Shown: piece by piece, positions 3,862 to 35,692 of the stretch
How the letters are laid out: every line of letters begins with the position of its first letter
How positions within the stretch are numbered: the stretch's first letter is position 1
Origin: Podarcis vaucheri
Lineage: Eukaryota
Assembly (NCBI GenBank): GCA_965113315.1
Contig: OZ220366.1
Length of the DNA stretch: 64,000 nt
Direction: 5' to 3' (one strand)
Position numbers and translations under genes: made by a program
The notes under the pieces: generated by a model
The model's input: the letters and a program-made list of their open reading frames with translations, nothing else
Told to the model about the DNA's origin: nothing
Databases searched by the model: none

Positions 3862-6633
3862 GGGATCCTGCAAGTTTAAGCCTTTTTAACCTGTGTGTGA
3901 ATATGTGTAGCTCCTGAAATATAGAAACATATCCATGTGCTGGAACATGCTGTGCTGGAACATGCTGTGGAATATGTTCCCTGTGGAATAATATGTGAAC
4001 CACTCGCCAAGAGCTATGCATTCTGCCGGCATCTGGCCCGCTGTTCTCTCTTTCTGGCCCACTGAAATCTCCACTGTGCAGAACCATCTAGATGGGATCA
4101 TATTGAGGAAGGACCTCACAGTTAAGCCAGATAGGTCTATCAGTTCTCTTCCATTGCAATATGCAAGCTGAAAAACAACAGTCCTTTGGAATTCACACTT
4201 CTCTGAATTTCGCAGTGCAATTCTTCAGATAAGTAATGCATACAAAAGTACATATACTAGTGTATAGTGTACATAATAAAGAGTGCTTATATTGATGAAA
4301 ATAATATTAAAAATGTATTTCATTGGGTGAAATGGTCTTGCAAAAATGTGTACATCAGGCAAAATTACATTAAAATGTGTATATTGGCAGCACTAATCAG
4401 TCACACTAAAATGCTGATTCAAAAGGACTTTTTAAAATAAATGCACAGTGATGTGGAAAGATAATCTGAATTTGAGAGATTTGGTCATCCCTAGCAATCT
4501 GCCACCTTCGTGAGGATGTGTGTGGAAGTGACTCTTCTGCATGCTCAGGGTGTCGTATTACCAAAGTTCACCTTGCCCTCATTAAGAGAGTGCAGGCCAG
4601 GAGATGAGATTTACAGGTTCCCAAGATGCACATGCAATAGAAGCAAAGAAAGTAAAAATATACTGATATGCATTTCTGGTTTCCTTCCTGCTGTAATATA
4701 GATATCAGTTCTCTGTGCATTAGTTTAGGCTGTTGTGGGGGGGGGATTAATGGTGTGATCACTTAAAGTATATTTCCCCCCCACTAGGGAGTGCACACCG
4801 TATATTTGTGAGTGATCCTTTGCTAAACTCTAATAGCAAATGCAAGTTGAGAATACCAGCAAATGGTTACTAAAACAGGGTAATAGGGAAATGTGAAGGA
4901 GTCATTAGCATGTTCAGAGATCACTAGAATTACAGATTGTTTTCTAAAAACCTGTTGGGGATTATTCATAACAGTAGGAGAATGTGCAATATTTAGTTGA
5001 TATATACACATTACCCAAGTCTTGTGGGAGATTAGGTATATTGACCTCTTCCTGAAAGGATTATGTGCATGTTTTCCACGAGGCCTGCTTAATGTGCACA
5101 GCTGTGAGTCGTGATGCACAGTAACCTCTCAACGTCCATTTTTCGTATGATAGATAGCCCAAACAGCCCCAGAATGTTCCCTATAGCCATGGTACATACA
5201 GTTCAGTTTCAGTCGGGAAATAAAAACAGAAAACTGGGGGGGGGGGCAGTGGTACGTCCTGGTTGGAGAGGATAGCTGGCTGGAACCCTGAACAACAGTG
5301 CTTCTGTTAGAAGGTGAGGATATGCTGTAGCATCTTGTTGTAGGTCCTATTGTCCTATCTTGGGGAGTGGGCTCTTAAGTTAAAATATTTCTGAAATTGT
5401 TTGACAGCCCTGCCCAATGGTATGAGAGGTCCATTCAAACGTTTGCATGTGGCGGCATTGCGGGACAGAGGATGCTTCAGTGGGGCCCCAATGGGGGAAT
5501 TCAAACTGTCTGGGCCCTTCCTGGTGGGCAGAGAGGGCATAAGCCTGCTCCCTGCTCCAGCAATAGGGGATGCAAGCTGGGACTTGGGCTGTGTGGAGGG
5601 CAAAGCCAATGGAGCCGATGGTGGGTTTTCCTCAGATTGCCCATTTAAACAGCCAGCCCCCTGCCCCCTGGTATGAGAATAGGGTAGTGAATGGATGATG
5701 CTTTGTGTCTGAAATCATCCCTGCAAAGCTGCATTAGCCACAGGGAGAGATGAGCAGGTACCATACTGGATAAAGGACTGGATCTGTAGCTGATGCAAAC
5801 CATTTCAATCTCACACTGACACGTCTTGATGGACACTCTCACACTCGAGAAAGAATGGTGGAATTGTGTCTCTTTGCATTTCACAGTGAATGGATTAGAT
5901 GATGCTCTGAGTCTGAATGATTGTCATAACTTGGAATGGACTGATTTCCCATAGTTCCACCACAGCTCCCCCTGCCTCCTTTGCCTCTCCACATCATGTG
6001 GTGTGGCCCAACAGCTTTAAGTCACCTGAAGCCATTTGTCGCACAGGCACCTTTCTGCAGTGCACCTCTCCTTTGAGTTAAAGGTTGATGGATGGATGTC
6101 CACTGTTGGATAGAGAGCTATTAAACACCAGCTGATTCTACGAGTGTGGCCATAAATAATCTCAAGCTCTAGACTGTATTCTTGTAAAATATAGCACTAG
6201 ATAACTAGCCTGCTTGGAAAATAGACTTGTGTCACTTTGCACGGCTGTGAGATAAGAGCTTAAAGGTGAAAAAAAGAGAAACACATCATTTTTTTTTGCA
6301 ATGCTTTAATATGCTGAATGCGCAAGTATGTTTCATAAAGATAATGCAAATGGGGAAATAAAATGCATTTCAACATTCTCAAGAGTAATAGCCAAGGTTG
6401 GCAAAAAAAATACTATGGATCTGAGACTAATTAGCTACATTTATAGCTTTGGGAGGAGATGATTTGCAGTTGTTGTTTGCAGACTGACCTCCCTGGCAAG
6501 GAAAGAAGCAGGAAATCGGGGTAGAGAGCAGGAAATGTGGAAAGCTACAGCTAAGCTAGCATTTTTCTTATTCTGTTTTTGTCTTGGAGGGATGCCGTTG
6601 TTGGAGGTTCCTGGTCTGTGACTTCATTTCGTT

Positions 6634-8814
6634 CTAATTTGCTGAAATGAAAAGAAGAGAAATCTGCTTTATAGGTTGAACATTCCTGTTTCAACTGCCT
6701 GGAAGCTGAATAGGGCTTGGGAGGAATTTCATTGGTTATGGATAAGTTGGGGGTTATCCTTGGTCTTGTCTGGATGGCTTCCTACTTGGGTTGTCAACTA
6801 AGGGATGTAGACACAAACAATGACATTGCATCCTTTTTTGTCACCTGGGGCGCATCTGCGTGTGCACCAGGGAGGACCAGGGGTTGGGCGTGGAGGGTGA
6901 ACATCATCATTCCACAGCATTGAGGGGAGGAGTGAGAAAGATACTGGTGTGTTTACATAGTAGTGGTTTCCACAAAGAATGGTTAAGAATATTCTAAGAA
7001 AATTATGCAAGACTGACTTTTTATAGTGGAGGGGATGAAAAAGGAAGAACCTCAGAAAAATATTTACTGTGAATTTTCTGCTTAGCTTTACATTATTCAC
7101 ACACACTGGTACCTCCTGGCATTTTCTTTTTCTACTGCAACATCACTGAATGGAAGGGAGTAAAAAAATTATGTTTCAAAGTGGGGGAGGGGCCACACAT
7201 GAGAATATTTTACTCAAATGTGCTACTCACCGTGGAAACACCATATCGTGTTCCTGATAGAATTGTTGAAACAGCACCCTCTTCTTAAACATTTAAATCT
7301 AGGTATTCCAGAGTATCCACATTCTCTTCTCCGGTTAGGCGGTACATTGCAGTTGCCTATTCAATAAGTAAAGTTGAGAGTTCTTTATTCATTGAAGAAT
7401 AGTTTGATTTAGCTTCAAGTCAACATTAGCCATGAAGATTTCCAAGCAAAAGAGAAATTGGATGCAGCCTGATCACCAAAGTCCTTCAAAATTCCAAATG
7501 TAAAACTATGTTCTGTTTGTAGGTACACATGGAAAATAAGTATGCTCAGTGGTAACCTTTAGATTCAAAGAGTGAAGTCAATGACACACAGAGAGAAACC
7601 TCAGCTCTGCCATTAGCTTTAGTCTATTGGTTGCCCAAGAGCCATAGGGGAGATACTCCCAAGGGTGATTTTTCAAGACAGCAGGAAGCTGGAGGTCCTC
7701 AGATCTTAAGAACTTGGAGCTGTGTGATGCCTGAACTGTTCTGAGCAGAGACAGAGAACCTCTCATATTCTTTCAGGCCTTCCTATTCACCTGAGACTTT
7801 CAATTTCTGAGGTCTTATGCATTGTTTCTGGCACAACGAAATCTCCAGAATGCAGAACAATCTACACTGGGTCATATAGGGAAAGAAGAGCCCACTTATA
7901 GGGATGTGATTGTATTCTATGACTGACAACTTCCAAAAGAGGAGCCAATGCTTAGTTTGTCACCAGAAAAGCAACAAATAGATCTGTGACATGTAAAGAC
8001 TAATACATTTACTGCAGCATCAGCTTTTCTGAATTACAAAAGCTGATGTTACAATAAATACCTTCAGGGGCAAAGTTCTCTTCTGATCACTTGGCTTATC
8101 AGCCATGACTCTTATAACCTTTTGTATGGGGGCAAATGAGTAGCTATACAGAGGTGGGGAACCCCCGGTCCATGGGCCAATGAGTCCCACCAGGTGTTCC
8201 CATTTGACCCATGAGGCTATGTGGGTGAAGCTACACCCACCTGCACTTCTCCTTATCATTATCACATCACCTGATGAGGAGGGGGGAGATAACAATCTGA
8301 CTTGCTGATCTAGAAGGGTCTGTAGCCCAAAGGAACTTGCAGAGTATGACCCATTGACATCAGCTAATTGTACTTTTAAGTAGACATGCATCGGATTGTG
8401 CTGGAAGACGGTAATGGAATGGATCCCCTAGGAATCATCCACCAACACAATTCAGGCCACCTCCCTTTTGGCCACCTGCCTTTGGAGGCTGTTGAAATCA
8501 GTGGTCAGTAACTAGGTTGTCCAGGGAGCCAAACACTGGTAACTTCCCACTGCTGCTACCCTGCTTTTTATGCACTGTAAAAAAATATGCCATCCAATCA
8601 TGTTTTTCCAAATTTATGGCATTGTTCTCCCTCCACATCTGTAGAATAGACTAGTATTAGCTATTAAATAGTTTTCAAAAAAAGTGAAAGTAATTTAAAT
8701 TGCTGGCTTACGTCTTTGTCCTTTGCCACCTTCGCCACCTCCCTGGCCATTTGCGAAACTGGCGAATCCTAAAACCAGGACAATGGCCAGGAGCCAGAGC
8801 AACTTGAAGTTCAT
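6634..8814 (-). CDS. Cationic single-domain trefoil peptide, copy 1 (78 aa precursor, 3 exons)
   Basis: Exons 8814-8712, 7356-7231 and 6641-6634, all GT-AG phase 1, 237 nt. Protein MNFKLLWLLAIVLVLGFASFANG|QGGGEGGKGQRRNCNVPPNRRRECGYSGIPRFKCLRRGCCFNNSIRNTIWCFHAN*. Signal peptide plus six-Cys trefoil motif. The 8-nt last coding exon is inferred from a strong acceptor shared by both copies and ATTAAA at 6305-6310. Confidence 0.88.
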
Positions 8815-8990: not shown

Positions 8991-10343
8991 TTATAACACT
9001 TTCTAGCGTCCAAAGCGCTTCGCATGCATTCTGTAGCTGTTATCATGGCATCAATCCTCTAAAGCAAACTATTATCTCTGACATTGCAGGGAAAACAGGT
9101 GGAAGGAGAAGGAAACAGGTAGAAATCCAAGATAAATGTTTCTGAAAGGGAAGATCAACCGCAATATTAAAATTTATCAATAGGCACAAAAATTAAGTGG
9201 TTGTATCTTATCTGCACAGATAAGTGTGACATATTTAGGAAGCTCCTTGCTTGATTCAAGACAGTTGAGATCTGAGGAAACCTGGTTGTACCAGGCTCTT
9301 TCTGCAGACCAAAGTTCAACTTAAAACTGGCTCATGGAAATCAAAATATTTCAACAACATTCATGTGCATATGTGTACACACAGACACCACTTAGAGATG
9401 GATGAATGTGGACTTCCGGTTCGGCGCCAGCGCTAATGGCTGCTCTCTCTCCGAGCTCCGGAGAGAGGACGGCTCTGCGAGTTCGGGTCTGACCCGCTTC
9501 GGCAAGCGGGGGACCCCTAAAATCACAGGAACGGATCCTGTGAACAAGGAGATTCGGTGGGCACCCGAAGCGCCCCCTCTTTACCGCAGAAAGAGCCTTT
9601 TTAAAGGCTCCGGAACGACAACGGGGGAGCGCGGTGCTGAGAATCGCTACCCAGCCCGCAGAGTGAAGCCGCGTCGCCATTAGTGGAGAGCGCCGATTCC
9701 CTTCCTGAAAAATCTGGACAAAAAAGACCCGTGAGTAAGACTGAACCTCTATTCGAATTAAAACTACCTGAAATTAGGCTGAAAACGGGAAAGGCAAAAA
9801 TTAAGGAAGTCTGCCTTCCCCCGACTGCATGATAATTAAAGCAACGAAAGTTACTAAGCTGCATCCGTAAGGGAAAATCGTTTTTAAATGCTTGAATCCG
9901 ACATTTGGACTTTGACTATCCCCTCCAGCTTGCAGGGCAGAGGGGAGGAAAAAGTGACTTTACAAGCTGCATGACTAATTTAAAGGAAAAGGAAACCTTC
10001 TGCAGCCTCCAACCTGGTACGAACTGCTCATAAAACAAAAGGAACACTGAACTGACTTCAGATTCCTGTGAAAGCAACAAAGTGGAAGCTTTACTGTTTA
10101 TTTGTTACAAAGTTTTGGGACTTTGTGGATACATTATATCAGGGAAGGCTGGGACTCTATTTACTAGGAAAGTGTTGCATTATACTTATAGAAGCCTCCT
10201 GATAAATTTGCTTTTTAACACTCTTTATTTCGGTTTGCGGACATTCTGATTTGCTCCCTCTAGAGGGTAAACTAAAAGTTGCTACGCTTTGGGACAGTGG
10301 AATTTTCTTAGGAGAAGGCTCTTGTGGGAAACGACCTTGGGAT

Positions 10344-11384
10344 ATGAGTGGCCCAGCAGACGAGATAAGCACGAGAGCCAAGACAAGGCAATATCAACAA
10401 CAGCTGCAGCAACACAAGAAAAGAGGCTCGATCTCAGGAATAACTTCTACAGTGACAACAGGACAAGAAAGAGGCACAGCAGTCTCCATGGATGCAGTAT
10501 CGCAAGCCCTTCTTAAGATAAATCAATCCCTGGAGAATTTAACAAAGCAAACGGCAGAGAACACTAAGAAATTGACAGAGAACTCACAGAAATTGACAGA
10601 TTTGACAGCAAGACTTGATTTGAATACAGAATCTATAAATAAGCTTACGCAAGAGAACTCTGCCACACGTCAAATTGCGGAGGAAGCCAGAACTATTGCT
10701 GGAGAGACTCAGGAAAAATTAGAACCGATTGCCAGGAAGGTCTATGACCACGATGCAACTCTGGCACTGTGGGAACTACAAAGAAAAGAAAAGAATCTGA
10801 AATTACGATCAATTCCAGAGGACGAAGGAGACAACCTCACGGACTTTTTAACGAACGAGTTTGCTGATGCTTGGGAAGACTTAGAGGAAGACGAAATCAA
10901 AATCACAACGGCATTCAGACTGGGCAGAAGACAGAATAGAAAGGTACCGAGAGACTGCTTGATCACCTTGAGATCGAAGGAGGAAAGAGACAAAATATTA
11001 AGACTGCATTTTGAAAAGGCCTTACAAATTGGGAATTCACCGATACAGATCTTTAAAGATATCCCTAAACATATTCTGGACTTGAGAGCTTCTTATAAGG
11101 ACCTGGTTTACCTGCTCAAGAAGAACAACATTCGTTTTAGGTGGGAATTTCCACAGGGACTGTCCTTTGACTATAGAGGGAAGAAGGTGAAAATAAAGAC
11201 GACACAGGATAAAGACAGCTTCCTGCATAAAAATCAAGAAGATCTACAGAAAGGAACTGTAGACCCAATTGCTGAGCAAAGGAGTGTATTAGATATCTTG
11301 AACCTCTCATTTGGACAGAACCTTCCACCACCAACAGAGGAGGAACAACAATTGGGAGCAGTGGGAGGAATACCAGAAAAATAA
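10344..11384 (+). CDS. L1 ORF1p (coiled coil plus RRM/CTD nucleic-acid chaperone)
   Basis: First in-frame ATG at 10344 within the 10251-11384 ORF; heptad-rich segment followed by KNLKLRSIPE, IFKDIP and FRWEFP motifs resembling L1 ORF1. Confidence 0.88.
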   Translation: MSGPADEISTRAKTRQYQQQLQQHKKRGSISGITSTVTTGQERGTAVSMDAVSQALLKINQSLENLTKQTAENTKKLTENSQKLTDLTARLDLNTESINKLTQENSATRQIAEEARTIAGETQEKLEPIARKVYDHDATLALWELQRKEKNLKLRSIPEDEGDNLTDFLTNEFADAWEDLEEDEIKITTAFRLGRRQNRKVPRDCLITLRSKEERDKILRLHFEKALQIGNSPIQIFKDIPKHILDLRASYKDLVYLLKKNNIRFRWEFPQGLSFDYRGKKVKIKTTQDKDSFLHKNQEDLQKGTVDPIAEQRSVLDILNLSFGQNLPPPTEEEQQLGAVGGIPEK

Positions 11385-11388
11385 CAAG

Positions 11389-14300
11389 ATGGCCCTGCAA
11401 TTCCTTAGCTGGAATTGTAATGGGATGAACATGCCTTTGAAGAGACGACAAGTATTCCACATTTTGTACAGAGAACAACTGGACGTGATTTGTTTACAGG
11501 AAACTCACATAACCAGAGCCCACAGGAGACTGCTTATGAATAAAAAATTGGGACAAGAATTTATCTCGTCAGACAAAGTGAAAAAAAGAGGAGTTGTGAT
11601 TTATGTAAAAGAGAAGTGGGCCCCAAAAATGATTTTTAAAGATGAAGAAGGAAGATATTTAGCGGTGGAGATTCAAGCACAAGGAGAAAAATTTTTGATA
11701 ATTGGGATTTATGCACCAAATGAAGGTAAAGCAGAATTCTTCAAAAAACTTCATGAAACCCTGATGGACTATTTGGAATATAATATGATAATTATGGGAG
11801 ATATGAATGGTGTAGTTTCTACAAACATGGACAAGACACAAAGGCTGATACTCACTAAAGAAGGGAGACTCCCGAAGACTTTTTTTGAAATGACTGAAAA
11901 TATGGACTTAATAGACATTTGGAGAACAAGGAACCCTCTTGAAAGAGAGGGAACCTTTTTCTCCCAAGCAAAGATGACCTGGACCAGAATCGACCAAATC
12001 TGGATTACTAGTGGAATGGCTCCGAGGATTAAGAAGGTAGAAATCTGCCCAAAAACCTGCTCCGACCATAACGCCGTGAAGATGGAAATGAAACTTACAA
12101 CAACTGGGCAGTTTAGATGGAGAATGAATGACACCCTGTTTCGAGATAGAGAGTTCCACTTGAAGGCCCAAAAAACTTTAAAGGACTATTTTGAAATCAA
12201 TCTAAGGGGCGATGTGGAAAGAAGAGTGATCTGGGACGCAAGTAAAGCTGTGATGCGAGGGTTTTTGATTCAACAAAACTCAATAAAGAAGAGAAAGCAG
12301 AAGGAGAAAAGAGAAAAAATTTTGGAAAAGATAAAAGAAGGAGAGAAAAAATTAAGGTCAAAACCAAAGTCCCAGGAGATTTTGAGGGAGATTAAATTGT
12401 ATCAAACACAATATATGGAATTGATGAACCAAGAGATAGAGTGGAAAATAAAGCAAATGAGACAAAAGACATTTGAGTCGGCAGATAAATGTGGCAAACT
12501 TTTGGCATGGCAACTCAAAAAAAGACAGAAATTAAATACAGTTTCAAGTTTGGAAGTGGATGGAAGGACCATATCTAAACCAAATGAGATAAGAAACTGT
12601 TTTGTGAGTTATTTCAAAAAACTTTATTCCCAAGGATTACAAAATGAAGAAGACATAGATAAATTCCTTAATAAACATGGATTACAAAAAATCTCTCCTC
12701 AAAGTAGGGTGGATCTAAACCAGAGAATAACAGAACAAGAGATAGAGGGTGCCATTCAGGACATGCAATTGGGCAAATCTCCAGGGCCAGATGGACTGAC
12801 TTCCAGATATTACAAATCGTTAAAGGAATGGTTGATACAACCGCTAAAGGATGTCTGTAATGAGATCTTAGAGGGGAAAAAGGCACCTGAATCGTGGAAA
12901 GAAGCATATATTTCACTCATACCAAAGACAGAGACTGAAAAGACTCAATTGAAGAACTACCGCCCAATCTCGTTACTCAATGTGGATTACAAAATTTTTG
13001 CAGACATTTTAGCAAAAAGATTCAAAAGAGTATTGATGGAAAGGATTCATAGAGACCAAGCAGGCTTTCTCCCAAAGAGACACCTCTCAGACAATGTTAG
13101 GAATATAATAGACATTCTGGAAAAGTTAGAGGTGAATATAAATACTAGAGCAGTTTTGATATTTGTGGATGCGGAGAAAGCCTTTGACAACATTTCTTGG
13201 AGTTTTATGAAAAAGAACCTTCATGGGATGGGGGTAGGACAAGGTTTTGAGAATGGTATAGGTGCAATATATTCCGAACAAAAAGCTAAGTTGATTGTAA
13301 ACAATGTAATAACTGAGGAACTTAAGATAGAAAAAGGAACACGACAGGGGTGCCCAATTTCCCCATTGCTTTTTATTTCGGTCCTGGAGGTGTTGCTGAA
13401 TATGATTAGAGAGGACCAGCAAGTTAAAGGTGTACAGGTCGGAGCAAAACATTACAAGTTAAGGGCTTTCGCAGATGACTTAGTTCTGACTTTACAAGAG
13501 CCATACACTAGCACGAAAAAGGTGTTGGAGATAATTCAACAATTTGGCCAGGTAGCTGGATTTAAACTGAATAAACAAAAAACTAAAGTCTTAGGGAAAA
13601 ACCTGACAGATATGGAGAAGAATAAGTTTCAAGAAGAGACGGGTTTGATGGTGGTTAAGAAGGTGAAATACCTAGGGGTTAATTTAACATCTAAAAATTT
13701 GAATTTATATAAGGACAATTATGAAAAATGTTGGTTAGAAATTAAAAAAGACTTAGAAATATGGTCAAATTTGAGATTATCAATGTTAGGCCGAATTGCA
13801 GTAATTAAGATGAATGTATTGCCTAGAATGTTATTTTTGTTTCAAACTTTGCAGATTATTGACAAGATGGACTGTTTCAAGAGGTGGCAGAAAGATATTG
13901 CGAAATTTGTCTGGCAGGGCAAAAAGCCCAGAATAAAATATAAAATACTAACAGATGCAAGAGAAAGAGGGGGATTTGCCCTGCCGGACTTAAAATTGTA
14001 CTATGAGGCAGCAGCATTCTGCTGGCTGAAAGAGTGGATGCTCCTCGAGAATACAGATATCTTGGACTTAGAAGGTTTCAATAACGCATTCGGTTGGCAT
14101 GCATATTTATGGTATGACAAAATCAAAGTGCATAGTGCCTTTAAAAATCACATTGTAAGGAAAGCGTTGTTCAATGTTTGGATGAGATATAAAGACCTGT
14201 TGGAAAACAAAACCCCTAGATGGTTGTCACCCTTAGAGGCGAAGGCCCATAAGAAAGTTAATATGGAGGTCGGATGGCCAAAGTATTGTGAGATTTTAGA

Positions 14301-15126
14301 ACAGGATGGAGAGAAACTGAAATTAAAGAGCCATGAAAAACTAAAACCCAAAGTACAAGATTGGCTCCACTATTATCAAATAATGGAGGTTTTTAAACAA
14401 GACAGGAAAATTGGCTTCCAGGTGGAAAAATCAAAACTTGAGACAGAACTGCTAGAACCCAATATTAAGAATTTGTCAAGAATGTATAACTTGCTGTTGA
14501 AATGGAACACACAAGATGAAATAGTTAAATCAGCTATGATTAAGTGGGCACAGGACATTGGTCATAATATTATGTCTGCTGACTGGGAAAGGTTGTGGAA
14601 CACCGGAATTAAATTTACGGCATGTAGTGCCTTAAAGGAAAATGTGATGAAAATGGTATACAGGTGGTACATGACCCCAGTTAAGCTAGCAAAAATTTAC
14701 CATTTGCCTGACAATAAATGCTGGAAATGTAAGGAAACTGAAGGTACTTTTTATCATCTTTGGTGGACATGCCCGAAGATTAAGGTCTTCTGGGAGATGA
14801 TATATAATGAAATGAAAAAGGTATTTAAATATACCTTTCTTAAGAAACCAGAGGCCTTTCTCTTGGGCATTGTCGGCCAATTGGTGCAAAAAAAGGATAG
14901 AACATTCTTTATGTACGCAACAACAGCAGCAAGAATATTGATCGCAAAGTATTGGAAGACACAAGATCTACCCACCGTGGAAGAATGGCAGATGAAAGTG
15001 ATTGACTATATGACATTGGCGGAAATGACGAGCAGAATTCGAGACCAGGGAAAGGAGACTGCGGAAGAAGATTGGAAGAAATTCAAGATTTATCTTAAGG
15101 ACTATTATAAACTTGATGAAGCTTAG
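11389..15126 (+). CDS. L1 ORF2p (APE endonuclease, reverse transcriptase, CCHC), 1245 aa
   Basis: SWNCNG, LQETH, GDMN and SDH (APE); PGPDG, YRPISL, DAEKAFD, RQGCPISP and FADD (RT); CWKC..HLWWTC. ATG 4 nt after the ORF1 stop. Confidence 0.95.
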   Translation: MALQFLSWNCNGMNMPLKRRQVFHILYREQLDVICLQETHITRAHRRLLMNKKLGQEFISSDKVKKRGVVIYVKEKWAPKMIFKDEEGRYLAVEIQAQGEKFLIIGIYAPNEGKAEFFKKLHETLMDYLEYNMIIMGDMNGVVSTNMDKTQRLILTKEGRLPKTFFEMTENMDLIDIWRTRNPLEREGTFFSQAKMTWTRIDQIWITSGMAPRIKKVEICPKTCSDHNAVKMEMKLTTTGQFRWRMNDTLFRDREFHLKAQKTLKDYFEINLRGDVERRVIWDASKAVMRGFLIQQNSIKKRKQKEKREKILEKIKEGEKKLRSKPKSQEILREIKLYQTQYMELMNQEIEWKIKQMRQKTFESADKCGKLLAWQLKKRQKLNTVSSLEVDGRTISKPNEIRNCFVSYFKKLYSQGLQNEEDIDKFLNKHGLQKISPQSRVDLNQRITEQEIEGAIQDMQLGKSPGPDGLTSRYYKSLKEWLIQPLKDVCNEILEGKKAPESWKEAYISLIPKTETEKTQLKNYRPISLLNVDYKIFADILAKRFKRVLMERIHRDQAGFLPKRHLSDNVRNIIDILEKLEVNINTRAVLIFVDAEKAFDNISWSFMKKNLHGMGVGQGFENGIGAIYSEQKAKLIVNNVITEELKIEKGTRQGCPISPLLFISVLEVLLNMIREDQQVKGVQVGAKHYKLRAFADDLVLTLQEPYTSTKKVLEIIQQFGQVAGFKLNKQKTKVLGKNLTDMEKNKFQEETGLMVVKKVKYLGVNLTSKNLNLYKDNYEKCWLEIKKDLEIWSNLRLSMLGRIAVIKMNVLPRMLFLFQTLQIIDKMDCFKRWQKDIAKFVWQGKKPRIKYKILTDARERGGFALPDLKLYYEAAAFCWLKEWMLLENTDILDLEGFNNAFGWHAYLWYDKIKVHSAFKNHIVRKALFNVWMRYKDLLENKTPRWLSPLEAKAHKKVNMEVGWPKYCEILEQDGEKLKLKSHEKLKPKVQDWLHYYQIMEVFKQDRKIGFQVEKSKLETELLEPNIKNLSRMYNLLLKWNTQDEIVKSAMIKWAQDIGHNIMSADWERLWNTGIKFTACSALKENVMKMVYRWYMTPVKLAKIYHLPDNKCWKCKETEGTFYHLWWTCPKIKVFWEMIYNEMKKVFKYTFLKKPEAFLLGIVGQLVQKKDRTFFMYATTAARILIAKYWKTQDLPTVEEWQMKVIDYMTLAEMTSRIRDQGKETAEEDWKKFKIYLKDYYKLDEA

Positions 15127-18965: not shown

Positions 18966-20735
18966 CTTAGTTTGCCTACCCATGCTCTAGGGCCTGCCAG
19001 AGCCATCATGACTCCTTCTCAAAGCCCAGGTCTTACTATGTTTTTGGGAAGGAGGCAGGAAGTCTCCCCCTCAGCTAGCCGCCTAGTGTGAGGGAACCAG
19101 TTGCACCACTCCAAATCTGCCTTTGGTGTAGTATTCTTTAACATGTAACACAACTCTTTTGTTGTATATTTTTGTGATAATATCCAGAGCTACAAATGGC
19201 TATTCCTCATCTTAATTCCCCCCCCCCATTGTAATAGGAAATGCAAGGTGAGAATCCCAGCAAATGGTTACTAAAACAGGGACCACTGGGAAACAATGAA
19301 GGAGTCATTAGCATGTTCAGAGATCACTAGAATTACAAAGATTGTTTTTTTAAAGCCTGTTGCGGATTATTCATAACAGTAGGAGAATGGGGAAAATTAA
19401 GTTGATATATGCACATTACCTTGTGGGAGATTAGGTATATTGACCTCTTCCTGAAAGGATTATGTGCATGTTTTCCATGAGGCCTGCTTAATGTGCACAG
19501 CAGTCAGTTGTTATGCACAGTAACCACTCAATGTACATTTCTTTTAAGACAGATAGCCCTAACAGCCCCAGAATGTTCTCTATAGCCATAGTGCAGACAG
19601 TTCAGTGTCAGTCAACAGTTCGGTGTCAGTCAGGAAAGAAAAACAGAAAACTGAAGGGGGTGGGGGGTGGCAGTGGTACGTCCTGGTTTGAGAGGATAGC
19701 TGGCTAGAACCCTGAACAACAGTGCTTCTGTTAGAAGGTGAGGATATCCTGCAACTTTTTGTTGTAGATCCTATGGTCCTATCTTGGGGAATGGGCTCTT
19801 AAGTTAAATCATCCCCACAAAGCTGCATTAGCCACAGGGAGAGATGAGCAGGTGCCATACTGGATAAAGGACTGGATCTGTAGCTGATGCAAACCATTTC
19901 AATCTCACACTGACAAAGGGGTGACACCCTCACACGCGAAAAAGCATGATGGAATTGTGTCCCATATGATGATCTCTTTGGATTTCACAGTGAATGGATT
20001 GGATGATGCTATGAGTCTGAATGATTGTCATAACTTGAAATGGACCGATTTCCCATAGGTCCACCACCACTCCCCCTGCCCCCTTTGCCTCTCCACATCA
20101 TGTGGTGTGGCCCAACAGATTTAAGTCACCTGAAGCCATTTGTCCCACAGGCACCTTTCTGCAGTGCACCTCTCCTTTGAGTTAAAGGTTGATAGATGGA
20201 TGTCGACTGTTGGATAGAGAGCTATTAAACACCATGTGTGTGGCCATAAATAATCTCAAGCGCTAGACTGTATTCTTGTTGTAAAAAAAATAGCTAGATA
20301 TCTAGCCTGTTTGGAAAATAGACTTGTATCACTTTGAATGGCTGTGAGATAAGAGCTTAAAGGTGAAAATATGTCAAGAGCATTAAAAAGAGAAACACAT
20401 CATTTTAACAATGCTTTAATATGCACAAAATGGTTTCATAAAGATAATGCAAACGGGGAAATAAAATGCATTTCTACATTCTCAAGAGTAATAACCAAAG
20501 TAGGCAAAATGGAGCTGAGACTAATTAACTACGTTTATACATTTTGGGGGAGAGGATTTGCAGTTGTTGTGCGCAGACAGATATGAACTGACCTCCCTGG
20601 CAAGGAAAGAAGCAGGAAATTGGGGTAGAGAGGAGGAAATGTTGAAAGCTACAGCTATGCCAGTATTTTGTTTTCTGTTTTTGTCTTGGAGGGATGCCGT
20701 TGTTGGAGGTTCCTGGTCTGTGACTTCATTTCGTT

Positions 20736-22958
20736 CTAATTTGCTGAAATGAAAAGAAGAGAAATCTGCTTTATAGGTTGAACATTCCTGTTTCAACTGC
20801 CTGGAAGCTGAATAGGGCTTGGGAGGAATTTCATTGGTTATGGATAAGTTGGGGGTTATCCTTGGTCTTGTCTGGATGGCTTCCTACTTGGGTTGTCAAC
20901 TAAGGGATGTAGACACAAACAATGACATTGCATCCTTTTTGTCACCTGGGGAGCATCTGCGTGTGCACCAGGGAGGACCAGGGGTTGGGCGTGGAGGGTG
21001 AACATCATCATTAAAGGGAAGTCTTATTTCTGCACATAGCTGTTGGTTCTCTTTCTGCACAAAACTGCTCCATTATGGGGAAGCCTTGCTCCTCTTTTCT
21101 CTTGCTTTAGAAATCTTGCTTGTAGGCTTTTCCCTGCTTTTGCACACACTGTACGAACCTGCTCTTCATGCCTAGCTGACCACATCTACAGAACTTGATT
21201 GTTACATTGTTTCATGTTATGATCAATCATTAGTAACAGACATCCTAAGCTCATGGAAAACAAACTGAACCTGCTCTTCATGCCTAGCTGACCACATCTA
21301 CAGAACTTGATTGTTACATTGTTTCATGTTATGATCAATCATTAGTAATTGTTTGTGCCATATTAATCTCTAGTTACAATTTAATTAGGAGGCTTCATGC
21401 CTGTCTAGTTCCAGCTTCGATTCCCAGCCTTTACTCCATCAATGATAAATGATCACATGTAATCCCCACCTCTCACATGTAATTCCCGCCTTAGTACTTA
21501 TGTTAACCAATCACAAGTTTCTTTGTGTATGTATCAACCAATCAGCCACAGGCCCACCTGTGGCAATGCTTGTAATATTCAATAAAAGAGGCTCTCAGGG
21601 TCCGCCCAGACAGACGCCTCATGTTACACCTGCCTCTCTCGTCTCCCGTGATTTTTCATTCCTACACATCATTCCACAGCATTGAGGGGAGGAGTGAGAA
21701 GGATACTGGTGTGTTTACATAGTAGTGGTTTCCACAAAAAATGGAGGAGAATATTCTAAGAAAACTATGCAAGATGGCCTTTTTATAGTGGATGGGATGA
21801 GAAAGGGAAAACCTCAGAAAAGTATCTACTGTGAAATTTCTGTTTAGCTTTACATTATTCACACACACTGGTCTCCTCCTGGCATCCCCCCCCCCTCTGG
21901 TTGCAACTGAATGGGAGGGGGTAAAAGTTTGATGTTTCATAGTGGGGGAGGGGCCACACATGATAATATTTTACTCAAATGTGCTACTCACGGTAGAAAC
22001 ACCATTTTGAATTCTTGATAGCATTGCTGAAACAGCAGTTTCTTTTTAAACATGTACTTCTAGGTATTCCAGGGTATCCACAGTCTCTTCTCCGACTAGG
22101 AGGTACGTTACAGTTGCCTATTCAATAAGAAAAGTTGAGAAATCAAAATTCATAGAGGAATAGTTTAATTTATATTCAGGTCAACAATAGCCATGAAGAT
22201 TTCCAAGCAAAAGAGAAATAGGATACAGCCTGATCACCAAAGTCCTTCAAAATTCCAAATGTAACTCAGTATTCTGTTTTACTGAAAGCTGTTTGTAGGT
22301 ACACATGGAAAATAAGTATATGCTCAATGGTAACCTTTACCTTCAAAGAGTGAAGTCAATGACACACACAGTGAAACCTCAGCTGTGCCATTAGCTTTAC
22401 TGGTTGCCCAAGAGCTATGGGAGAGGAACTCCCAAGGGTGATTTTTCAAGACTGCAGGAAGCTGGATGTCTTCAGATCTTAAGAACTTGAAGTTGTGTGG
22501 TGCCTCTGAGTAGAGACAGAGAACCTCCCTGAACCAAATGAGCCTCTTTATATATGTTCTGGAAGCTTTCTCTGGCCTTATCTCTAGTTTTTTGGTCACT
22601 GTTGTTATGTTAGGAAGTTGTCACATATCTAAAAGGTCTCACTGAGCTAAGCAAATAAATGGGCAGAAAATACAAAGGCTTATTTCTCTCTTTGAAAGTT
22701 GTGACCCATCAAGATGAATGGAGTGCACCAGGCATTGTATTGTGGCCTGCTAGGTGTTCATCATCTGCAAGTATATAGCACAAGCAGGAAGTTTACCACA
22801 TCTCTGATGGCTCACCATATGTGGTTGGTATTTGGCTTGGTGACCAACAAGATGCTCAGGCATGGCCTTAACTTTTTCCCACAGCACACCATTACATTTT
22901 GCTTCCTGAAGCAGACCTCAGGTGCTCCACCATGAACCTGGCTAGGGTCAGCAAGTTG

Positions 22959-23001
<43 letters not shown>

Positions 23002-24001
23002 GTCTTGTTGAACATTCATATATCAGTTCATGCCTTCATCTATTTCCTACATGAAGCCAGTCACTCCATCTTTCTGTATAGCAAAGCCAACCCTGACTGT
23101 TTGAAAGTCCCCCTCTGGTCATTTGGCTTATCAGCCATGACTCTTGTAACCTTTTGTACAGGGGCAAATGAGTAGCCATACAGAGGTGGGGAACCCCTGG
23201 TCCATGGGCCAATGAGTCCCACCAGGTGTTCCCATTTGAGCCTTGAGCCCATGTGGGTGAAGCTACACCCACCTGCACTCCTCCTGATGTCATCAGCTGA
23301 TTGTCAGATCTTCAGAAGCCCCGTTCAATGGGTTGAGAAAAATTGGGCAAAAAAAGGTCATCTGAATTCTTAATGGTGTCAGATGATATCATTATCACCT
23401 GATGAGGAGGGGGGAGATAACAATCTGACTTGCTGATCTAGAAGGGTTTGTAGCCCAAAGGAACTTGCAGAATTTGACCCATTAATATCAACAGATTTTA
23501 CTTTTAAGTAGACATGTATTGGATTGTGCTGAAAGACGGTAATGGAATGGATCCCCTAGGAATCATCCACCAGCACAATTCAGGCCACCTGCCTTTTGGC
23601 CACCTGCCTTTGGAAGCAGTTGAAATCAGTGGTCAGTAACTAGGTTGTCCAGGGAGCCAAACACTGGTCCCTTCCCACTGCTGCTACCCTGCTTTTTGTG
23701 CACTGTAAAAAAATATGCCATCCAATTGTGTTTTTCCAAATTTATGGCATGGTTCCCCCTCCACCCCTTCTAGGAACAGGGTCACAGCTGTAGAATAAAC
23801 TAGTATCAGCTATTAAATAGTTTTATAAAAAATGAAAGTAATTTAAATTGGTGACTTACGTTTTTGTCCTTTGCCCCCACGGCCTCCTCGGCCACCTCTA
23901 CCACCACGGCCACCTCCACCACGGCCACCCCTGGCATCTGCGAAACTGGCGAATCCTAAGACCAGGACAATGGCCAGGAGCCAGAACCACTTGAAGTTCA
24001 T
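20736..24001 (-). CDS. Cationic RGG-repeat single-domain trefoil peptide, copy 2 (91 aa precursor, 3 exons)
   Basis: Exons 24001-23860, 22117-21992 and 20743-20736, GT-AG phase 1, 276 nt. Protein MNFKWFWLLAIVLVLGFASFADA|RGGRGGGGRGGRGGRGGRGGKGQKRNCNVPPSRRRDCGYPGIPRSTCLKRNCCFSNAIKNSKWCFYPN*. ATTAAA at 20415-20420. Confidence 0.88.
21012..21666 (+). mobile_element. Probable ERV solo LTR in intron 2 of trefoil copy 2
   Basis: Absent from the paralogous site (~6911); CATCAT TSD at 21006-21011 and 21667-21672; ends CCTACA; two CCAAT boxes, AATAAA near 21581 and an internal ~80-bp direct repeat. The 5' end reads TA rather than TG. Confidence 0.7.
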
Positions 24002-24585
24002 TTTTATCTGAAATGTTCACCAAATCTTCAAACCTGTTGAAAGATTCCAGATGAAAGTTGTGACCCAGTAGAGTTTTAATATACTTCCTTTTCAATGAAG
24101 AAAGGTATAACAAATGGAGGCTTTCAGGCTGCGATGGTAAATCATGAGTTCAGAATAGGTGACACTTAACATTTATATTATAACACTTTCTAGCGTCCAA
24201 AGCACTTCGCATGCATTCTGTAGCTGTTATCATGGCATCAATCCTCTAAAACAAACTATTATCTCTGACATTGCAGGGAAAACAGGTAGAAGGAGAAGGA
24301 AACAGGTAGAAATCCAAGATAAATGTTTCTGAAAAGGAAGATCAACTGTGATATTAAAATTTATCAACAGGCACAAAAATGTAAGTACCTGAATCTTATC
24401 TGCACAGATATCAAAGCAAGTGTGACATATTTAGAAAGCTCCCTGCTTGATTCAAGACAGTTGAGATCTGAATAACCTGGCTCTAGGAGGCTCTTTCTGC
24501 AGACCAAAGTTCACTGCAAAACTGGCTCACGGAAATCAAAATATTGCAACAACATTCATGTGCATATGTATACACACACACACCA

Positions 24586-26230
24586 TACTATACTAGCTAC
24601 TATGGATGTGGAATCTCTGTATACCAACATCCCACACAACGATGGTTTACAAGCTATAAGGAACACCATTTCAGATAAAACCACAGCGGACCTTGCCACC
24701 AAACTCTGCCAATTTGTCCTTACCCACAACAACTTCAAATTTGGTGATGACCTGTTCCTTCAGATCAGCGGCACAGCAATGGGCACCCGCATGGCCCCAC
24801 AGTATGACAACATCTTCATGGCAGATTTAGAACAACATTTCCTGAACTCCTACCTACTCAAACCTCTCTTGTACCTGCGATACATTGATGATATTTTTAT
24901 CATCTGGACACATGGTCAACAGACCCTGGACACCTTTCACCAGAAATTTAATGATTTTCACCCCACAATCAACCTTACAATGAATCAATCTATGCAAGAA
25001 ATACATTTTTTGGACACTACTATAAAAATACAGGATGGGCGCATAGACACCACCTTATACCACAAACCAACTGACCGACAAACATATCTACATGCCTCTA
25101 GCTACCATCCCAAACATACCAAACAGTCCATTGTATATAGCCAGGCACTACGTTACAGCCGCATCTGTTCCAATTCTACAGACAGAGACTCTCACCTAAG
25201 AGATCTACAGCAAACCTTCTCAGAACTAAAATACCCAGCAGATGAAGTTAGACAACAGATCAACAGAGCCAGACTGATACCCAGAGAGAACTTGCTGCAA
25301 GACAGACCCAAAAAAGAAAATAACAGAACACCTCTAGTCATCACATACAGCTCCCAAGTTAAAACAGTACAACGCATCATCAGAGATCTACAACCTCTCC
25401 TGGACAATGACAGTTCTCTTTCTCAAGCTCTGGGAGGAAGACCTTTCATTGCCTACAGACAGCCACCCAATCTTAAACAACTCCTAACCCACAATAATAC
25501 TACAACCAGACTTAACACAGACACTGGCACCAGAACCTGCAATAAACCCAGATGCCAACTTTGCTGCCACATACACCCGGACAACACCATTACTGGCCCC
25601 AACAACATCACACATACCATCTCGGGACTATTTAATTGCTCATCGTCTAACATTGTGTATGCCATCAAATGCCAACAGTGTCCTTCAGCTCTCTATATTG
25701 GACAAACAGGCCAAACCTTACGCCAAAGAATAAACGGACATAAATCTGACATCAAGAATCACAAAACAGAGAAACCAGTAGGAGAACACTTCAATCTCCC
25801 AGGACATTCTATACAAGATCTCAAAGTAGCTGTTTTACTACAAAGGAATTTCAGAAATAGACTGGAAAGAGAAGCTGCTGAATTACAACTCATTACCAAA
25901 CTTAAAACCATGGAAAGACCTGGGCTGAACAAAGACATTGGATTCTTATCTCACTATACATGACTAAACCATTTCTCACCTTTTCATCCCTTGCCTTTTC
26001 CTGTAAGACCTATTACAGTCGTTAAGAGTCGTCAACAGGCTCTCTCAGCTATCTGCCTATCTCCCATTCCCACCACCCTTCTGAGTAACACCCCTCCCCA
26101 CCTTCTCACAATATAGAAGGATCTGGCAACTTCTGTTTCTGTGTATCTGAAGAAGTGTGCATGCACACGAAAGCTCATACCAAGAACTAACTTAGTTGGT
26201 CTTTAAGGTGCTACTGGAAGGAATTTTTTT
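24586..26230 (+). mobile_element. 5'-truncated Penelope-like element (Neptune-type)
   Basis: Open frame to 25963 with RT motifs (DVESLYTNIP, GTAMG, YIDD), a Cys-rich linker (CNKPRCQLC) and a GIY-YIG endonuclease (IVY...YIG...GLN); ~12-bp TSD ACACACACACCA at 24574-24585 and 26231-26242. Confidence 0.92.
26143..26180 (+). ncRNA. Minimal hammerhead ribozyme in the Penelope 3' repeat
   Basis: GTAT-CTGAAGA-a-GTGTGCATGCACAC-GAAA-GCTC-ATAC: CUGANGA and GAAA cores, palindromic stem II, GTAT/ATAC stem I, vestigial palindromic stem III. Confidence 0.75.
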
Positions 26231-28213: not shown

Positions 28214-29299
28214 TTAACATTCTGAAAAGGCAATAAAAACAAAAAGTATAAGAACTGGGGTAGTTTAGCTCTCCCTTGTCCACCTCCATCAAATCAAGTG
28301 ACAGCAGGAGTAATGTCCCTAGTAGCTGTCTTTAATATTCTGCCCCGCCAAAAAATATGTTGTGCTCAGTTACACATGCTTATACGGACCATGGGCCTAA
28401 TCATTTGCTCCCCTCATGCAAGAGAGGAAGCAGGGGCACTCTGCCTGACCACACTTGTCACATTCCTGCTGGTCTATTGCTGCACCCCTCCATGTGTTTG
28501 GGCTGACCCTTTGCAGCAGACAGCCTGCTTGACTTGTGTGGGCTTCCTGTGTGGTGTAGAATCTTAGAGGATCAGGGTTCTAGATCATTTAAAATTGCTG
28601 TACAAGTACAAAGCCTCCCTGCTGAAGACGTCCAGCTCAAATGCACGGAAGGCTGCAGGGATAAGCCATCCGTAAGCAACAATGGGTGGGACCAACAAGA
28701 CTGTCCCTCTCCTCACCCCAGGATTAGAATTACTGCCCTCCCTGCTCATACTAATGGACTTGCATGAGGGATAGTAACCAAATTTGGGGAAGGGTGTATG
28801 CAGTTATTCTAAAGCTTTTCGCATCAGATTTCTTTCCATTTGCACTTGACCTGTGCTACAGATTGCTTGCATGCTCACGCTGAAAGGCATTTACTATTGA
28901 CTGGTAGTATAGTCTCTTGAAGATATAATGTGCAACAAAATACAAGGAGTAGCATGTGCCTCAGTACAAAATTTTGTTCCATTTGTGCAAAGGGGGAAAA
29001 TATGTTTGTTACTTTACCTTCTGCTACCTCAACATGGAAGAAACACCATGGAACTGCGGGAGGACGGGACTCAAAACAGCATCCTCTCTCTTCACATGCA
29101 GCAGCAGAGATTCCTGGGTATCCACAATTCTTCCTGACTTTCACCTCTGAAGGACATACCTTTTTATCTGTTTTGAATAGTTACCTGAAGATTAGCGGAT
29201 CAAAGTCACAGTGTTGCTCGTAGTCTTTGTCTAGCTGGTGCTGCTTTTGCCCTTGCTTTTCTGTTTTATTTGAGCTCAAGATACATGAACTATTTTGTG

Positions 29300-29975: not shown

Positions 29976-32775
29976 ATCTATCTACTTTCTCTCAGGTTCT
30001 GGCATGAAGTCTAACATCAGGTAGGGTTCCAGTGACTGAGAAACAGTGGTTTTTCATATTTCCTCGGACAGTTTCTATGTTTGCCTATAAGACAAGACTA
30101 ACTGAATGCCTGATAGAAGAATTCCATCCCTCTGACCTGTGTATCATTTTTAGTATCTCAGAAAAGCCAGGTATGCTTCAGAAAAATACATTACATTTGG
30201 GGGGGCTTGGAGCAAAGCACCAGGGCACTCCTGCAACTTCAGAACTGAAGCAGCACCCAGCATCCCGGCATTGCTGGGGAGTGATTCCAGGAGGTCCACA
30301 GTTAACTCTTGCTTTGGGATCAACGTGACATCGGCATTCCGCTGTTGAGAACAGAAATCATGGTTAGCTCTTTTCTTGTAAGAACATGGTAGCCTCTGGC
30401 AGGTCTCATTGACCTTTCAATGGGAGCTTCCTTCTGTTCAGATATTTGCCTAAATGTAGCCCTCAGTTGAACACCCAATGGCTAAAAGAGGGGAGGGGCA
30501 CAGGTATGCATGCAAACCCCAGCCCTCTGAGCGCTGGATTGAGCAGGAAAGTCTCTGGAGCTGAGCTGGCCTTTGTGAGGACAAGACTCCCCCCCCCCGC
30601 CCCAATTTTCAGTCCATGCAGGTTCAGGCTCAGTGGCTAAGAGGGCTCATAGAATCATAGAATCATAGAATCATAGAGTTGGAAGAGACCACAAGGGCCA
30701 TCGAGTCCAACCCCCTGCCAAGCAGGAAACACCATCAGAGCACTCCTGACATATGGTTGTCAAGCCTCTGCTTAAAGACCTCCAAAATAGGAGACTCCAC
30801 CACACTCCTTGGCAGCAAATTCCACTGTCGAACAGCTCTTACTGTCAGGAAGTTCTTCCTAATGTTTAGGTGGAATCTTCTTTCTTGTAGTTTGGATCCA
30901 TTGCTCTGTGTCCGCTTCTCTGGAGCAGCAGAAAACAACCTTTCTCCCTCCTCTATGTGACATCCTTTTATATATTTGAACATGGCTATCATATCACCCC
31001 TTAACCTCCTCTTCTCCAGGCTAAACATGCCCAGCTCCCTTAGCCGTTCCTCATAAGGCATCGTTTCCAGGCCTTTGACCATTTTGGTTGCCCTCCTCTG
31101 GACACGTTCCAGTTTGTCAGTGTCCTTCTTGAATTGTGGTGCCCAGAACTGGACACAGTACTCCAGGTGTGGTCTGACCAGAGCAGAATACAGTGGCACT
31201 ATTACTTCCCTTGATCTAGATGCTATACTCCTATTGATGCAGCCCAGAATTGCATTGGCTTTTTTAGCTGCCGTGTCACACTGTTGGCTCATGTCAAGTT
31301 TGTGGTCAACCAAGACTCCTAGATCCTTTTCACATGTACTGCTCTCAAGCAAGGTGTCCCCCATCTTGTATTTGTGCCTCTCATTTTTTTTGCCCAAGTG
31401 CAATACTTTACATTTCTCCCTGTTAAAATTCATCTTGCTCATGAATTTCCTATCTAATAAAAATGCAAATCCTTTGTTTAGATCCCTCTGATAGTAAAGA
31501 TGCCAGGGGTTAAGCCTGTTGAAATCATACAACATGTTTCCAGTAATATTAGAACACGTTATTATTTTTATTTTTATTATTTATTATATTTCTATATTGC
31601 CATATACACACAGGTCTCAGGGTGGTTCACAACATAAAATCACAATCTGAAACAGCAAAATACATTTTTTGCTGCATTCCCAGCAGCCCTGTAAGTAAAG
31701 TTTTTAAAAACAAAAACAACCCAATAATCACCCCCTCCCCAACACATTTTAAAAGGGCACCTTTGTGAACTTGTTTGTGATAGGTAATTTCCCTGCAGGT
31801 AATTCCTGTGGGATTTGGGGTTATATTTTATCCCTCTCCCTTAGGTACCAAATCATTAGCAGCACCTGTACGGGACAGCTCTTGTACCTTTGGCAATACC
31901 CCTCTAAGGAGGCAAATTGCTAGGTATTTAAAAGATTCTGAATGCAGGTTCATGATGTACATTTGCATTATGTACATATCCTAATGTATATGTAGAGATG
32001 CAATTTTAGATCTATGAGAAAATGAAGGTGCTAGATGACTTAGGTCTCACTGGCAATATGCTTTTGTTGCATTCCCAGCAGCCCTGTAAATAAAGTTTTT
32101 AAAAAGTTTTTTAAAAAAGGCACAGGAGATCTAAGACAGTGAAAACAGCTCAGGGCCTAGTTCCCCCTGGGCCACCCCTAAGAACACCACTGCCCTTAAC
32201 CCCTGCTTTTGGAACGCTGTTGTAAGTGGGCATCATTTTGTTACCCTTAGGGGAGCTAAGGCTTGTGGATTTCACTAATGGTCTGCAACCTTTCCGTCCT
32301 GCAATTTGAGCTCTCGGACGTGGCTGGTTCGACTTTCCAAGTGACTTGGCTTAGCTTCAATTGTAAAGGTCATCGCTGATATCACTGAAATGAATTGAAA
32401 TTTTTCTATTGCCCACGCAGCGGAATGTAACCCTTTACTTCCTTATGGGACAGGGGGAGAAACCTTCCATATTTTATAGCTGTTACCCAGTTTGATGTGC
32501 ACTCTTACAAAATATATCTAATTGATTAAGGGACTTTGTTGTGCTTCTCTTAATGTTGGTAAGAAGTTGGCCTTAAAGTTTCTCAACAGCAGGGGCAAGT
32601 TCATCCAATTCCGAATATTGGCAACATATGCCTTCATTCCATTAATGCACTATAAGGAAGGATAATCTAAACAGCTCTTAAGGTACTTACGTGGAGCTTT
32701 CTTATCATCGGCCAATGCACCAAGTCCTAACATTAAAATGAGTGAAAGTATCCAGACCCCCTTCTGCTCCATCAT
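28214..32775 (-). CDS. TFF2: Trefoil factor 2 (two trefoil domains, 129 aa, 4 exons)
   Basis: Exons 32775-32691, 30341-30195, 29167-29018 and 28221-28214, GT-AG phase 1, 390 nt. [129 protein letters not shown]. Has the N-terminal CxC and C-terminal Cys typical of TFF2; AATAAA at 27997-28002; synteny with TMPRSS3. Confidence 0.9.
29303..29496. mobile_element. Short non-autonomous Penelope-derived palindromic insertion in TFF2 intron 2
   Basis: 12-bp TSD TATTTTGTGATT at 29291-29302 and 29497-29508; perfect 41-bp inverted arms 29346-29386 and 29401-29441, homologous to 26169-26209. Confidence 0.8.
30647..31440 (-). mobile_element. CR1 LINE 3' fragment in TFF2 intron 1
   Basis: (ATTCTATG)n tail; ORF2 C-terminus [12 protein letters not shown]...[15 protein letters not shown]...RRLRGD. 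Confidence 0.92.
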
Positions 32776-35559: not shown

Positions 35560-35692
35560 NNNNNNNNNNNNNNNNNNNNNNNNNNNNNNNNNNNNNNNNN
35601 NNNNNNNNNNNNNNNNNNNNNNNNNNNNNNNNNNNNNNNNNNNNNNNNNNNNNNNNNNNNNNNNNNNNNNNNNNNNNNNNNNNNNNNNNNNN
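35560..35692. other. Assembly gap (133 N)
   Basis: Run of N between TFF2 and the four-domain gene. Confidence 1.

Follow-up and report, generated by a model that had tools for sequence, protein, structure and literature searches.

In the 64,000-nt window (the whole stretch of Podarcis vaucheri DNA that was analysed), exon 1 of a minus-strand trefoil-factor (TFF) gene with three exons ends in an RGG repeat. This gene, which we call copy 2, is one of two tandem TFF paralogs inside a Podarcis-like TFF cluster; the other, copy 1, occupies 8814-6305 on the minus strand. The features of the two genes are as follows.

24001-23860, minus strand: copy 2 exon 1, coding length 142 nt
23933..24001, minus strand: copy 2 predicted signal peptide, codons 1-23, with a hydrophobic core (mean hydropathy 3.1) and an Ala-Asp-Ala end
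23860..23932, minus strand: copy 2 Arg/Gly tail, six RGG units followed by KGQK and the first base of a split Arg codon
21992..22117, minus strand: copy 2 exon 2, trefoil domain with six Cys, net charge +7, sugar-binding Asp and Trp retained (Pfam PF00088; alignment to TFF1/TFF2 chains)
20415..20743, minus strand: copy 2 exon 3, which finishes a Pro codon and adds Asn and the stop, without Cys; 3' UTR with ATTAAA at 20420
8712..8814, minus strand: copy 1 exon 1, 103 nt coding, predicted signal peptide, then a short Gly-rich tail of net charge +2 that lacks the Arg repeat; matches P0086
7231..7356, minus strand: copy 1 exon 2, cationic trefoil domain (PF00088) with Glu at the sugar-binding Asp/Asn position
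6305..6641, minus strand: copy 1 exon 3 and 3' UTR, with ATTAAA at 6310

The copy 2 codons from 23932 to 23861 (minus strand) read RGGRGGGGRGGRGGRGGRGGKGQK, and 23860 is base 1 of a codon that is interrupted by intron 1 and encodes Arg in both copies. The initial annotation had set this tail against QGGGEGGKGQR in copy 1, and the gene models bear it out: copy 2 exon 1 is longer by 39 nt, in frame (142 versus 103 nt), the six RGG units use mixed Arg codons (AGG, CGT, CGT, AGA, CGA, CGT), and a dibasic site, KR and RR in the two copies, spans the exon 1/2 junction. The tail contains a tri-RGG pattern in the usual definition of that pattern, and a six-frame translation of the window gives no di-RGG match outside its two RGG clusters. 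The intron 1 donor of copy 2, GTAAGT at 23859, fits the consensus at 8 of 9 positions; other donors inside the tail were considered and set aside as weak, with phase-1 GT sites that fit at just 3-5 of 9. The signal peptide was judged by inspection, from its hydrophobic core and Ala-x-Ala end, and the junction at its end is the same in the Notechis, Ahaetulla and Varanus relatives. The gene model and these orthologs support the view that copy 2 encodes a secreted peptide (as predicted) with a cationic, variable N-terminal tail.

The exon model is confirmed for copy 1, which differs from the RefSeq Podarcis muralis protein XP_028581468.1 at just 2 of 78 residues and has an exon 3 that gives the same C-terminus; its predicted mature peptide has 55 residues and a net charge of +9. 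Protein database searches, which have limited sensitivity, returned no protein more than 71% identical to copy 2 exon 2, so copy 2 lacks independent annotation support. Its frame, splice sites, six Cys, TATA-like signal and poly(A) signal are all intact.

Trefoil factors are mucin-binding lectins, and the window gene is a member of this family that is neither of the TFF1/TFF3 type nor a classical RGG box. Pfam assigns PF00088 at 53.8 bits (copy 2) and 52.1 bits (copy 1) against a cut-off of 21; exon 2 gives Trefoil alone, and exon 1 gives no match and no WAP domain. The predicted structure of the copy-1-type Podarcis protein (P0086; mean pLDDT 68, built on 6 sequences) superimposes on TFF3 and TFF1 structures with an rmsd of 1.0-2.7 Å, and its copy-1-type tail has a pLDDT below 50. 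ESM Atlas matches are to generic trefoil clusters only, at 0.89. In common with TFF1 and TFF3, the gene has a signal peptide (a predicted one here), one six-Cys trefoil domain, three exons and the same fold, lies in the TFF cluster and, in copy 2, keeps the sugar-binding Asp/Asn and Trp. Unlike them, it has a strongly basic domain and a long Arg-rich N-terminal tail, and it is without the acidic C-terminal tail with a seventh Cys that defines TFF1 and TFF3, as described in PMC7350206. Both copies reach a stop two codons past exon 2, which leaves no acidic C-terminal tail and no seventh Cys, and both have six Cys in total, as do P0086 and P0154.

For copy 2, the mature peptide is predicted to be 68 residues long (7.3 kDa when intact), including 17 Lys and Arg, one acidic residue and six Cys, with a net charge of +16 (equal to that of the mature Notechis protein) and a pI of 11.4. 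Trefoil domains this basic are scarce in our data: a net charge of at least +7 is found in 12 of 451 trefoil-domain alignments, several of them the squamate orthologs, where the 451 are alignments of at least 35 residues from 180 fetched proteins, a set gathered with a cationic query and including those orthologs. The sugar-binding side chains of human TFFs are Asp/Asn and Trp according to PMC7221086; copy 2 has Asp and Trp at these positions, as do the tailed orthologs, and copy 1 has Glu and Trp.

Between the paralogs, ten segments outside exon 2 are 87-99.6% identical, compared with 81.7% for exon 2. For exon 2, pS is 0.27 and pN 0.16, and the dN/dS of 0.54 shows no sign of positive selection between the two. 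The end of intron 2 (20744..20993 versus 6642-6891, both minus strand) is identical at 248 of 249 aligned bases, a tract that probably reflects recent gene conversion between the paralogs; the pattern suggests that conversion acted in the flanks and spared the mature peptide. A copy-2-specific insertion in intron 2 holds an exact 82-bp direct duplication (21155-21348). In copy 1, a perfect 10-bp inverted repeat (8742-8751 / 8782-8791) pairs the signal/tail junction with signal-coding DNA, and copy-1-specific junction changes would make this repeat perfect. Template switching via the repeat was considered and rejected as not significant (P=0.055 and 0.068; folding z-scores -1.44 and 0.24).

The initial annotation proposed that the RGG box was built by 9-bp repeat expansion, which the DNA does not show. 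At free codon positions the similarity of the 9-bp units is 0.38, compared with 0.33 for random synonymous RGG codons (P=0.24), the 39-nt length difference is no multiple of 9, and TRF matches a 9-bp period at just 68-75%; since the units are no more alike than random ones, and given the length difference and the TRF rows, 9-bp expansion is not established at the DNA level. Recent 9-bp microsatellite slippage is likewise unsupported (P=0.24). TRF reports just one perfect row within the tail, for a 15-bp unit in 1.9 copies (23901-23929). The RGG units differ from each other at synonymous positions only.

Cationic domains that are 58-71% identical to that of copy 2 are found in Salvator, Varanus, Notechis, Ahaetulla, Laticauda, Naja, Ophiophagus, Pseudonaja and Crotalus. 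The following squamate entries belong to the same cationic trefoil group and have a similar signal peptide.

XP_028581468.1: Podarcis
XP_026529752.1: Notechis
XP_058042205.1: Ahaetulla
XP_044297673.1: Varanus
A0A8D0KNY4: Salvator

Three of these entries carry a tail at the same position; the tails are Arg/Pro-rich or absent, the entries bear generic names, and several are fused across adjacent genes. No RGG-tailed copy is among the squamate database matches. Copy 2 belongs to a cationic squamate TFF group placed between TFF2 and the neutral single-domain TFF of squamates, from which the cationic group is separated as a clade in a 17-row tree (100/100). In a 43-row tree the cationic group has a support of 82/92, and a long-branch sturgeon domain falls inside it, so the limits of the group are unsure. 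This domain (P0072, Huso, KAK6494504.1) has a net charge of +7 and points to either an older origin or convergence. A fused Varanus model contains, in order, TFF2, an Asp-type cationic domain, a Glu-type cationic domain and a neutral domain ending near a Cys; this order fits that of the window, in which case the neutral gene would lie beyond position 1. Whether copy 1 is orthologous to the Glu-type domain of Varanus is left open by the 17-row tree, and the alternative is not rejected by an AU test (p=0.44); the 43-row tree unites both window copies (95/88).

In public models P0002, P0004, P0053, P0152, P0153 and P0181 the cationic exon is often fused with adjacent TFF genes, and such fused models may be the reason that the cationic group stayed unnamed. 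A search of an open-licence literature library found no paper on squamate TFFs that are cationic or tailed. In a recent catalogue of Podarcis antimicrobial peptides, 'trefoil' and 'TFF' have 0 matches in the main text (PMC12278569), and the accessible text of two evolution papers mentions reptiles only briefly (PMC3146476, PMC12372087).

A credible N-terminus is available in four non-lacertid records (Notechis, Ahaetulla, Varanus and Salvator); those of the remaining relatives are mis-spliced or partial models and are uninformative on the tail. Two snakes and the Komodo dragon have an Arg/Pro-rich tail of 15-18 residues at the same place as the copy 2 tail. The Notechis tail, RIPFRPRPPPRRPPRKGG, directly follows the same Asp-Ala signal end as in copy 2, that of Ahaetulla departs from the Notechis one at 2 of 18 residues, and that of Varanus is RIIPRPPRTRPRPGR; the tegu (Salvator) model has no tail. 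The net charge of the tail is +9 in copy 2, +7 in Notechis and in Ahaetulla, +6 in Varanus and +2 in copy 1. We infer that the Arg content is conserved and that the spacer differs, being Gly in this lacertid and Pro in the snakes and Varanus. On these alignments the Arg-rich tail would be older than the RGG repeat or would have arisen twice, and Gly would have taken the place of Pro as the spacer. Short copy 1, with its Arg-poor tail and its Asp changed to Glu, is probably the derived form, because the outgroups have the signal junction and Arg-rich tail of copy 2. This weakens expansion of copy 2 as a complete account of the difference between the paralogs.

One possible route to the change of spacer is a single in-frame micro-inversion of the tail-coding DNA, which would have turned an Arg/Pro tail into an Arg/Gly tail in lacertids. 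The relevant frame is the following, which we do not claim as a gene.

23862..23933, plus strand: antisense frame over the tail, with Pro/Arg repeats

This Pro/Arg reading follows from the code, because GG pairs with CC and CG is self-complementary, and an inversion would keep Arg because CG reads alike on both strands. In an order-level test the snake tails matched the antisense frame better than their own shuffles did, with P=0.048 and 0.105 for copy 2 and P=0.026 and 0.033 for copy 1, among 12 comparisons and with two snake tails that differ at just 2 of 18 residues; the Varanus tail did not (P=0.27 and 0.83). Over 8 scoring schemes the snake P values range from 0.01 to 0.51, and a wrong-direction control (copy 1 versus Varanus) gave P=0.03-0.10, showing that such values arise by chance. 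No inverted repeat flanking the tail was found, and a sense-strand alignment is also seen for the Lys-Gly close to the end of the tail. Inversion of a spacer by template switching has been reported in yeast coding DNA (PMC8604942). Taken together, we regard a micro-inversion as unlikely.

Tandem RGG units are shared with intracellular RGG boxes; however, the copy 2 tail stands behind a predicted signal peptide, has no aromatic residues and is accompanied by no RNA-binding domain. Arg methyltransferases act in compartments other than that of a secreted tail. A classical intracellular RGG box, with a predicted signal peptide before the tail and a disulfide domain after it, is rejected as unlikely from this context. 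Closer likenesses are found among secreted peptides. Drosophila Nemuri is processed at RXXR and RR sites into secreted, disordered RG/RGG peptides, which are described as inhibiting E. coli at 5-7 uM without lysis, via RNA and ribosome binding, with an MIC that rises to 30 uM when four RGG motifs are mutated (PMC13720017). According to the discussion of the same paper, ribosomes are inhibited by PR as well as by GR dipeptide repeats (PMC13720017). Like Nemuri, the copy 2 peptide is secreted (as predicted), contains RGG, has few hydrophobic residues and has a dibasic site close by; a Nemuri-like disorder is suggested by composition for the copy 2 tail, the low pLDDT coming from the copy-1-type tail only. 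The resemblance implies no homology: the R/G region of Nemuri is C-terminal, with no disulfide domain, and Nemuri has an acidic inhibitory prodomain, whereas mature copy 2 has one acidic residue. Nemuri C42 has 16 Arg and the copy 2 tail 6 (7 with the junction), which we count against an antimicrobial action of the tail.

Crustins share the architecture of a signal, a variable low-complexity tail and a small disulfide domain, and both Gly-rich and Pro/Arg-rich tail types occur among them. Type II crustins are described as Gly-rich plus WAP and type III as Pro/Arg-rich plus WAP, the latter having no antibacterial action without the Pro/Arg N-terminal region; as far as the text of PMC9680087 goes, no function is assigned to the Gly-rich domain. 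Crustins differ from copy 2 in having WAP in place of trefoil, and type II Gly-rich tails are hydrophobic, not Arg-rich.

By analogy with these systems, we propose that copy 2 may be a monovalent trefoil lectin carrying an Arg-rich antimicrobial tail, in the manner of Nemuri or the tailed crustins, a reading to which we give an even chance. Signal peptidase would cleave after Ala23 to yield a 68-residue peptide of net charge +16. With the seventh Cys missing, the disulfide dimer needed for mucin cross-linking would be impossible and the lectin monovalent, and the Asp/Trp site would keep the peptide on mucus glycans. The disordered Arg-rich tail and basic domain surface would bind anionic microbial envelopes, and the tail, either still attached or clipped at KR, would inhibit bacteria without lysis, by binding their RNA and ribosomes. 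We count the similar tail charge in Notechis, Ahaetulla and Varanus, despite another spacer residue, for a function of the Arg-rich tail; the snake and Varanus tails presumably resemble proline-rich antimicrobial peptides. Against it, the tail-less tegu model and a copy 1 tail without its Arg indicate that the tail is dispensable in some members. The strongly positive Arg/Gly tail of this lizard, set where the snake and monitor-lizard counterparts have an Arg/Pro tail, suggests that lizards and snakes made one trefoil factor into an antimicrobial-type peptide.

Alternatively, the peptide could be a mucus anchor or two-way cross-linker that does no killing, with the lectin site on GlcNAc-alpha-1,4-Gal, the tail on sulfated or sialylated mucin or extracellular DNA, and the tail replacing the lost Cys-mediated dimer. 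Human TFF1 is described as aggregating H. pylori and as not bactericidal for it (PMC7918695), which fits such an anchor and counts against the antimicrobial reading. The retention of Asp and Trp in copy 2 and the tailed orthologs points the same way, as does the absence of the seventh Cys given that monomeric TFFs do not cross-link mucin and divalency is needed, as described in PMC7221086. We nevertheless consider the anchor doubtful: it leaves unexplained that the Gly and the Pro spacer alike are of a type known from antimicrobial peptides that act inside cells, and the basic domain persists in the tail-less tegu model and in copy 1. It is improbable, in our estimate, that the tail is a propeptide or separate peptide freed by a proprotein convertase at KR/RR while the trefoil domain works alone. 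The KR and RR junctions of the two lacertid copies, an R-x-x-R at the end of the Varanus tail, an RK two residues before the junction in the snakes and the processing of Nemuri at RXXR and RR sites all speak for this release, which the initial annotation had raised. However, the junction has no KR/RR in any of the 4 non-lacertid orthologs whose N-terminus is credible, Arg-rich tails are expected to contain basic pairs by chance, and copy 2 has no Arg at P4. Additionally, a disulfide-bonded Cys stands two residues away from the bond, and a scissile bond so placed is disfavoured for cleavage. The proposal of convertase cleavage thus keeps the presence of KR/RR in both copies and the precedent of Nemuri being cut at plain RR, and it is weakened by the non-lacertid junctions.

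Neutral low-complexity turnover, with a functionless tail whose length and composition drift or with copy 2 as a silent duplicate, we judge to be quite improbable. It would account for the missing tail of the tegu model, the degenerate tail of copy 1 and the failure to find the copy 2 protein in protein database searches, but not for the intact frame, splice sites, six Cys and TATA-like and poly(A) signals, for repeat units that vary only synonymously, or for three lineages having Arg-rich tails of like charge.

If the lectin with an antimicrobial tail is the correct reading, the cationic, tailed, monomeric TFFs found across lizards and snakes would be an added class of host-defence peptide. 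They offer a natural series on nearly the same domain, with an RGG tail, an Arg/Pro tail, a short Arg-poor tail and no tail, all synthesisable by length, and hence a direct way to find out if tails of the GR and PR types are interchangeable. A joint reading, in which a squamate TFF became a lectin-anchored, ribosome-directed antimicrobial peptide and its tail was also inverted in frame in lacertids, is in our view very improbable; if true, it would provide a vertebrate counterpart of Nemuri and a natural sense/antisense PR-GR interchange.

The rest of the TFF cluster lies upstream of copy 2, where the same strand has seven further trefoil exons, and a TMPRSS-type protease exon at 56.2-56.4 kb is, from synteny, taken to be TMPRSS3. 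A minus-strand TFF gene has a signal exon at 49947 and a domain at 48395-48520; this domain and the first one of gecko P0065 share 79% identity and group together in the 43-row tree (100/99), and the gene is probably the TFF1-position gene. A signal exon at 41669 and divergent trefoil exons at 40721-40846, 39990-40110, 38651-38764 and 36975-37094 (all minus strand) possibly form one multi-domain TFF. At the Asp/Asn position, Arg is found in the 40.7 kb exon and Gly in the 37.0 kb exon; loop 2 of the 40.7 kb exon is longer by two residues, and the 40.0 kb exon is without Cys1 and Trp. An assembly gap of 133 N (35560-35692) falls within the cluster. A two-domain TFF2 on the minus strand (30217-30336 and 29043-29156) groups with reptile TFF2 domains in the 43-row tree. 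A 495-codon open frame at 24476-25963 (plus strand) has reverse-transcriptase and GIY-YIG-like motifs; this presumably Penelope-type element has its insertion site roughly 0.6 kb upstream of where copy 2 starts, and the duplicated segment has its edge there. A LINE element at 10206-15126 (plus strand), which lies upstream of copy 1, has two long open frames of 392 and 1274 codons, and a decayed antisense relative of it lies near 17-18.9 kb.
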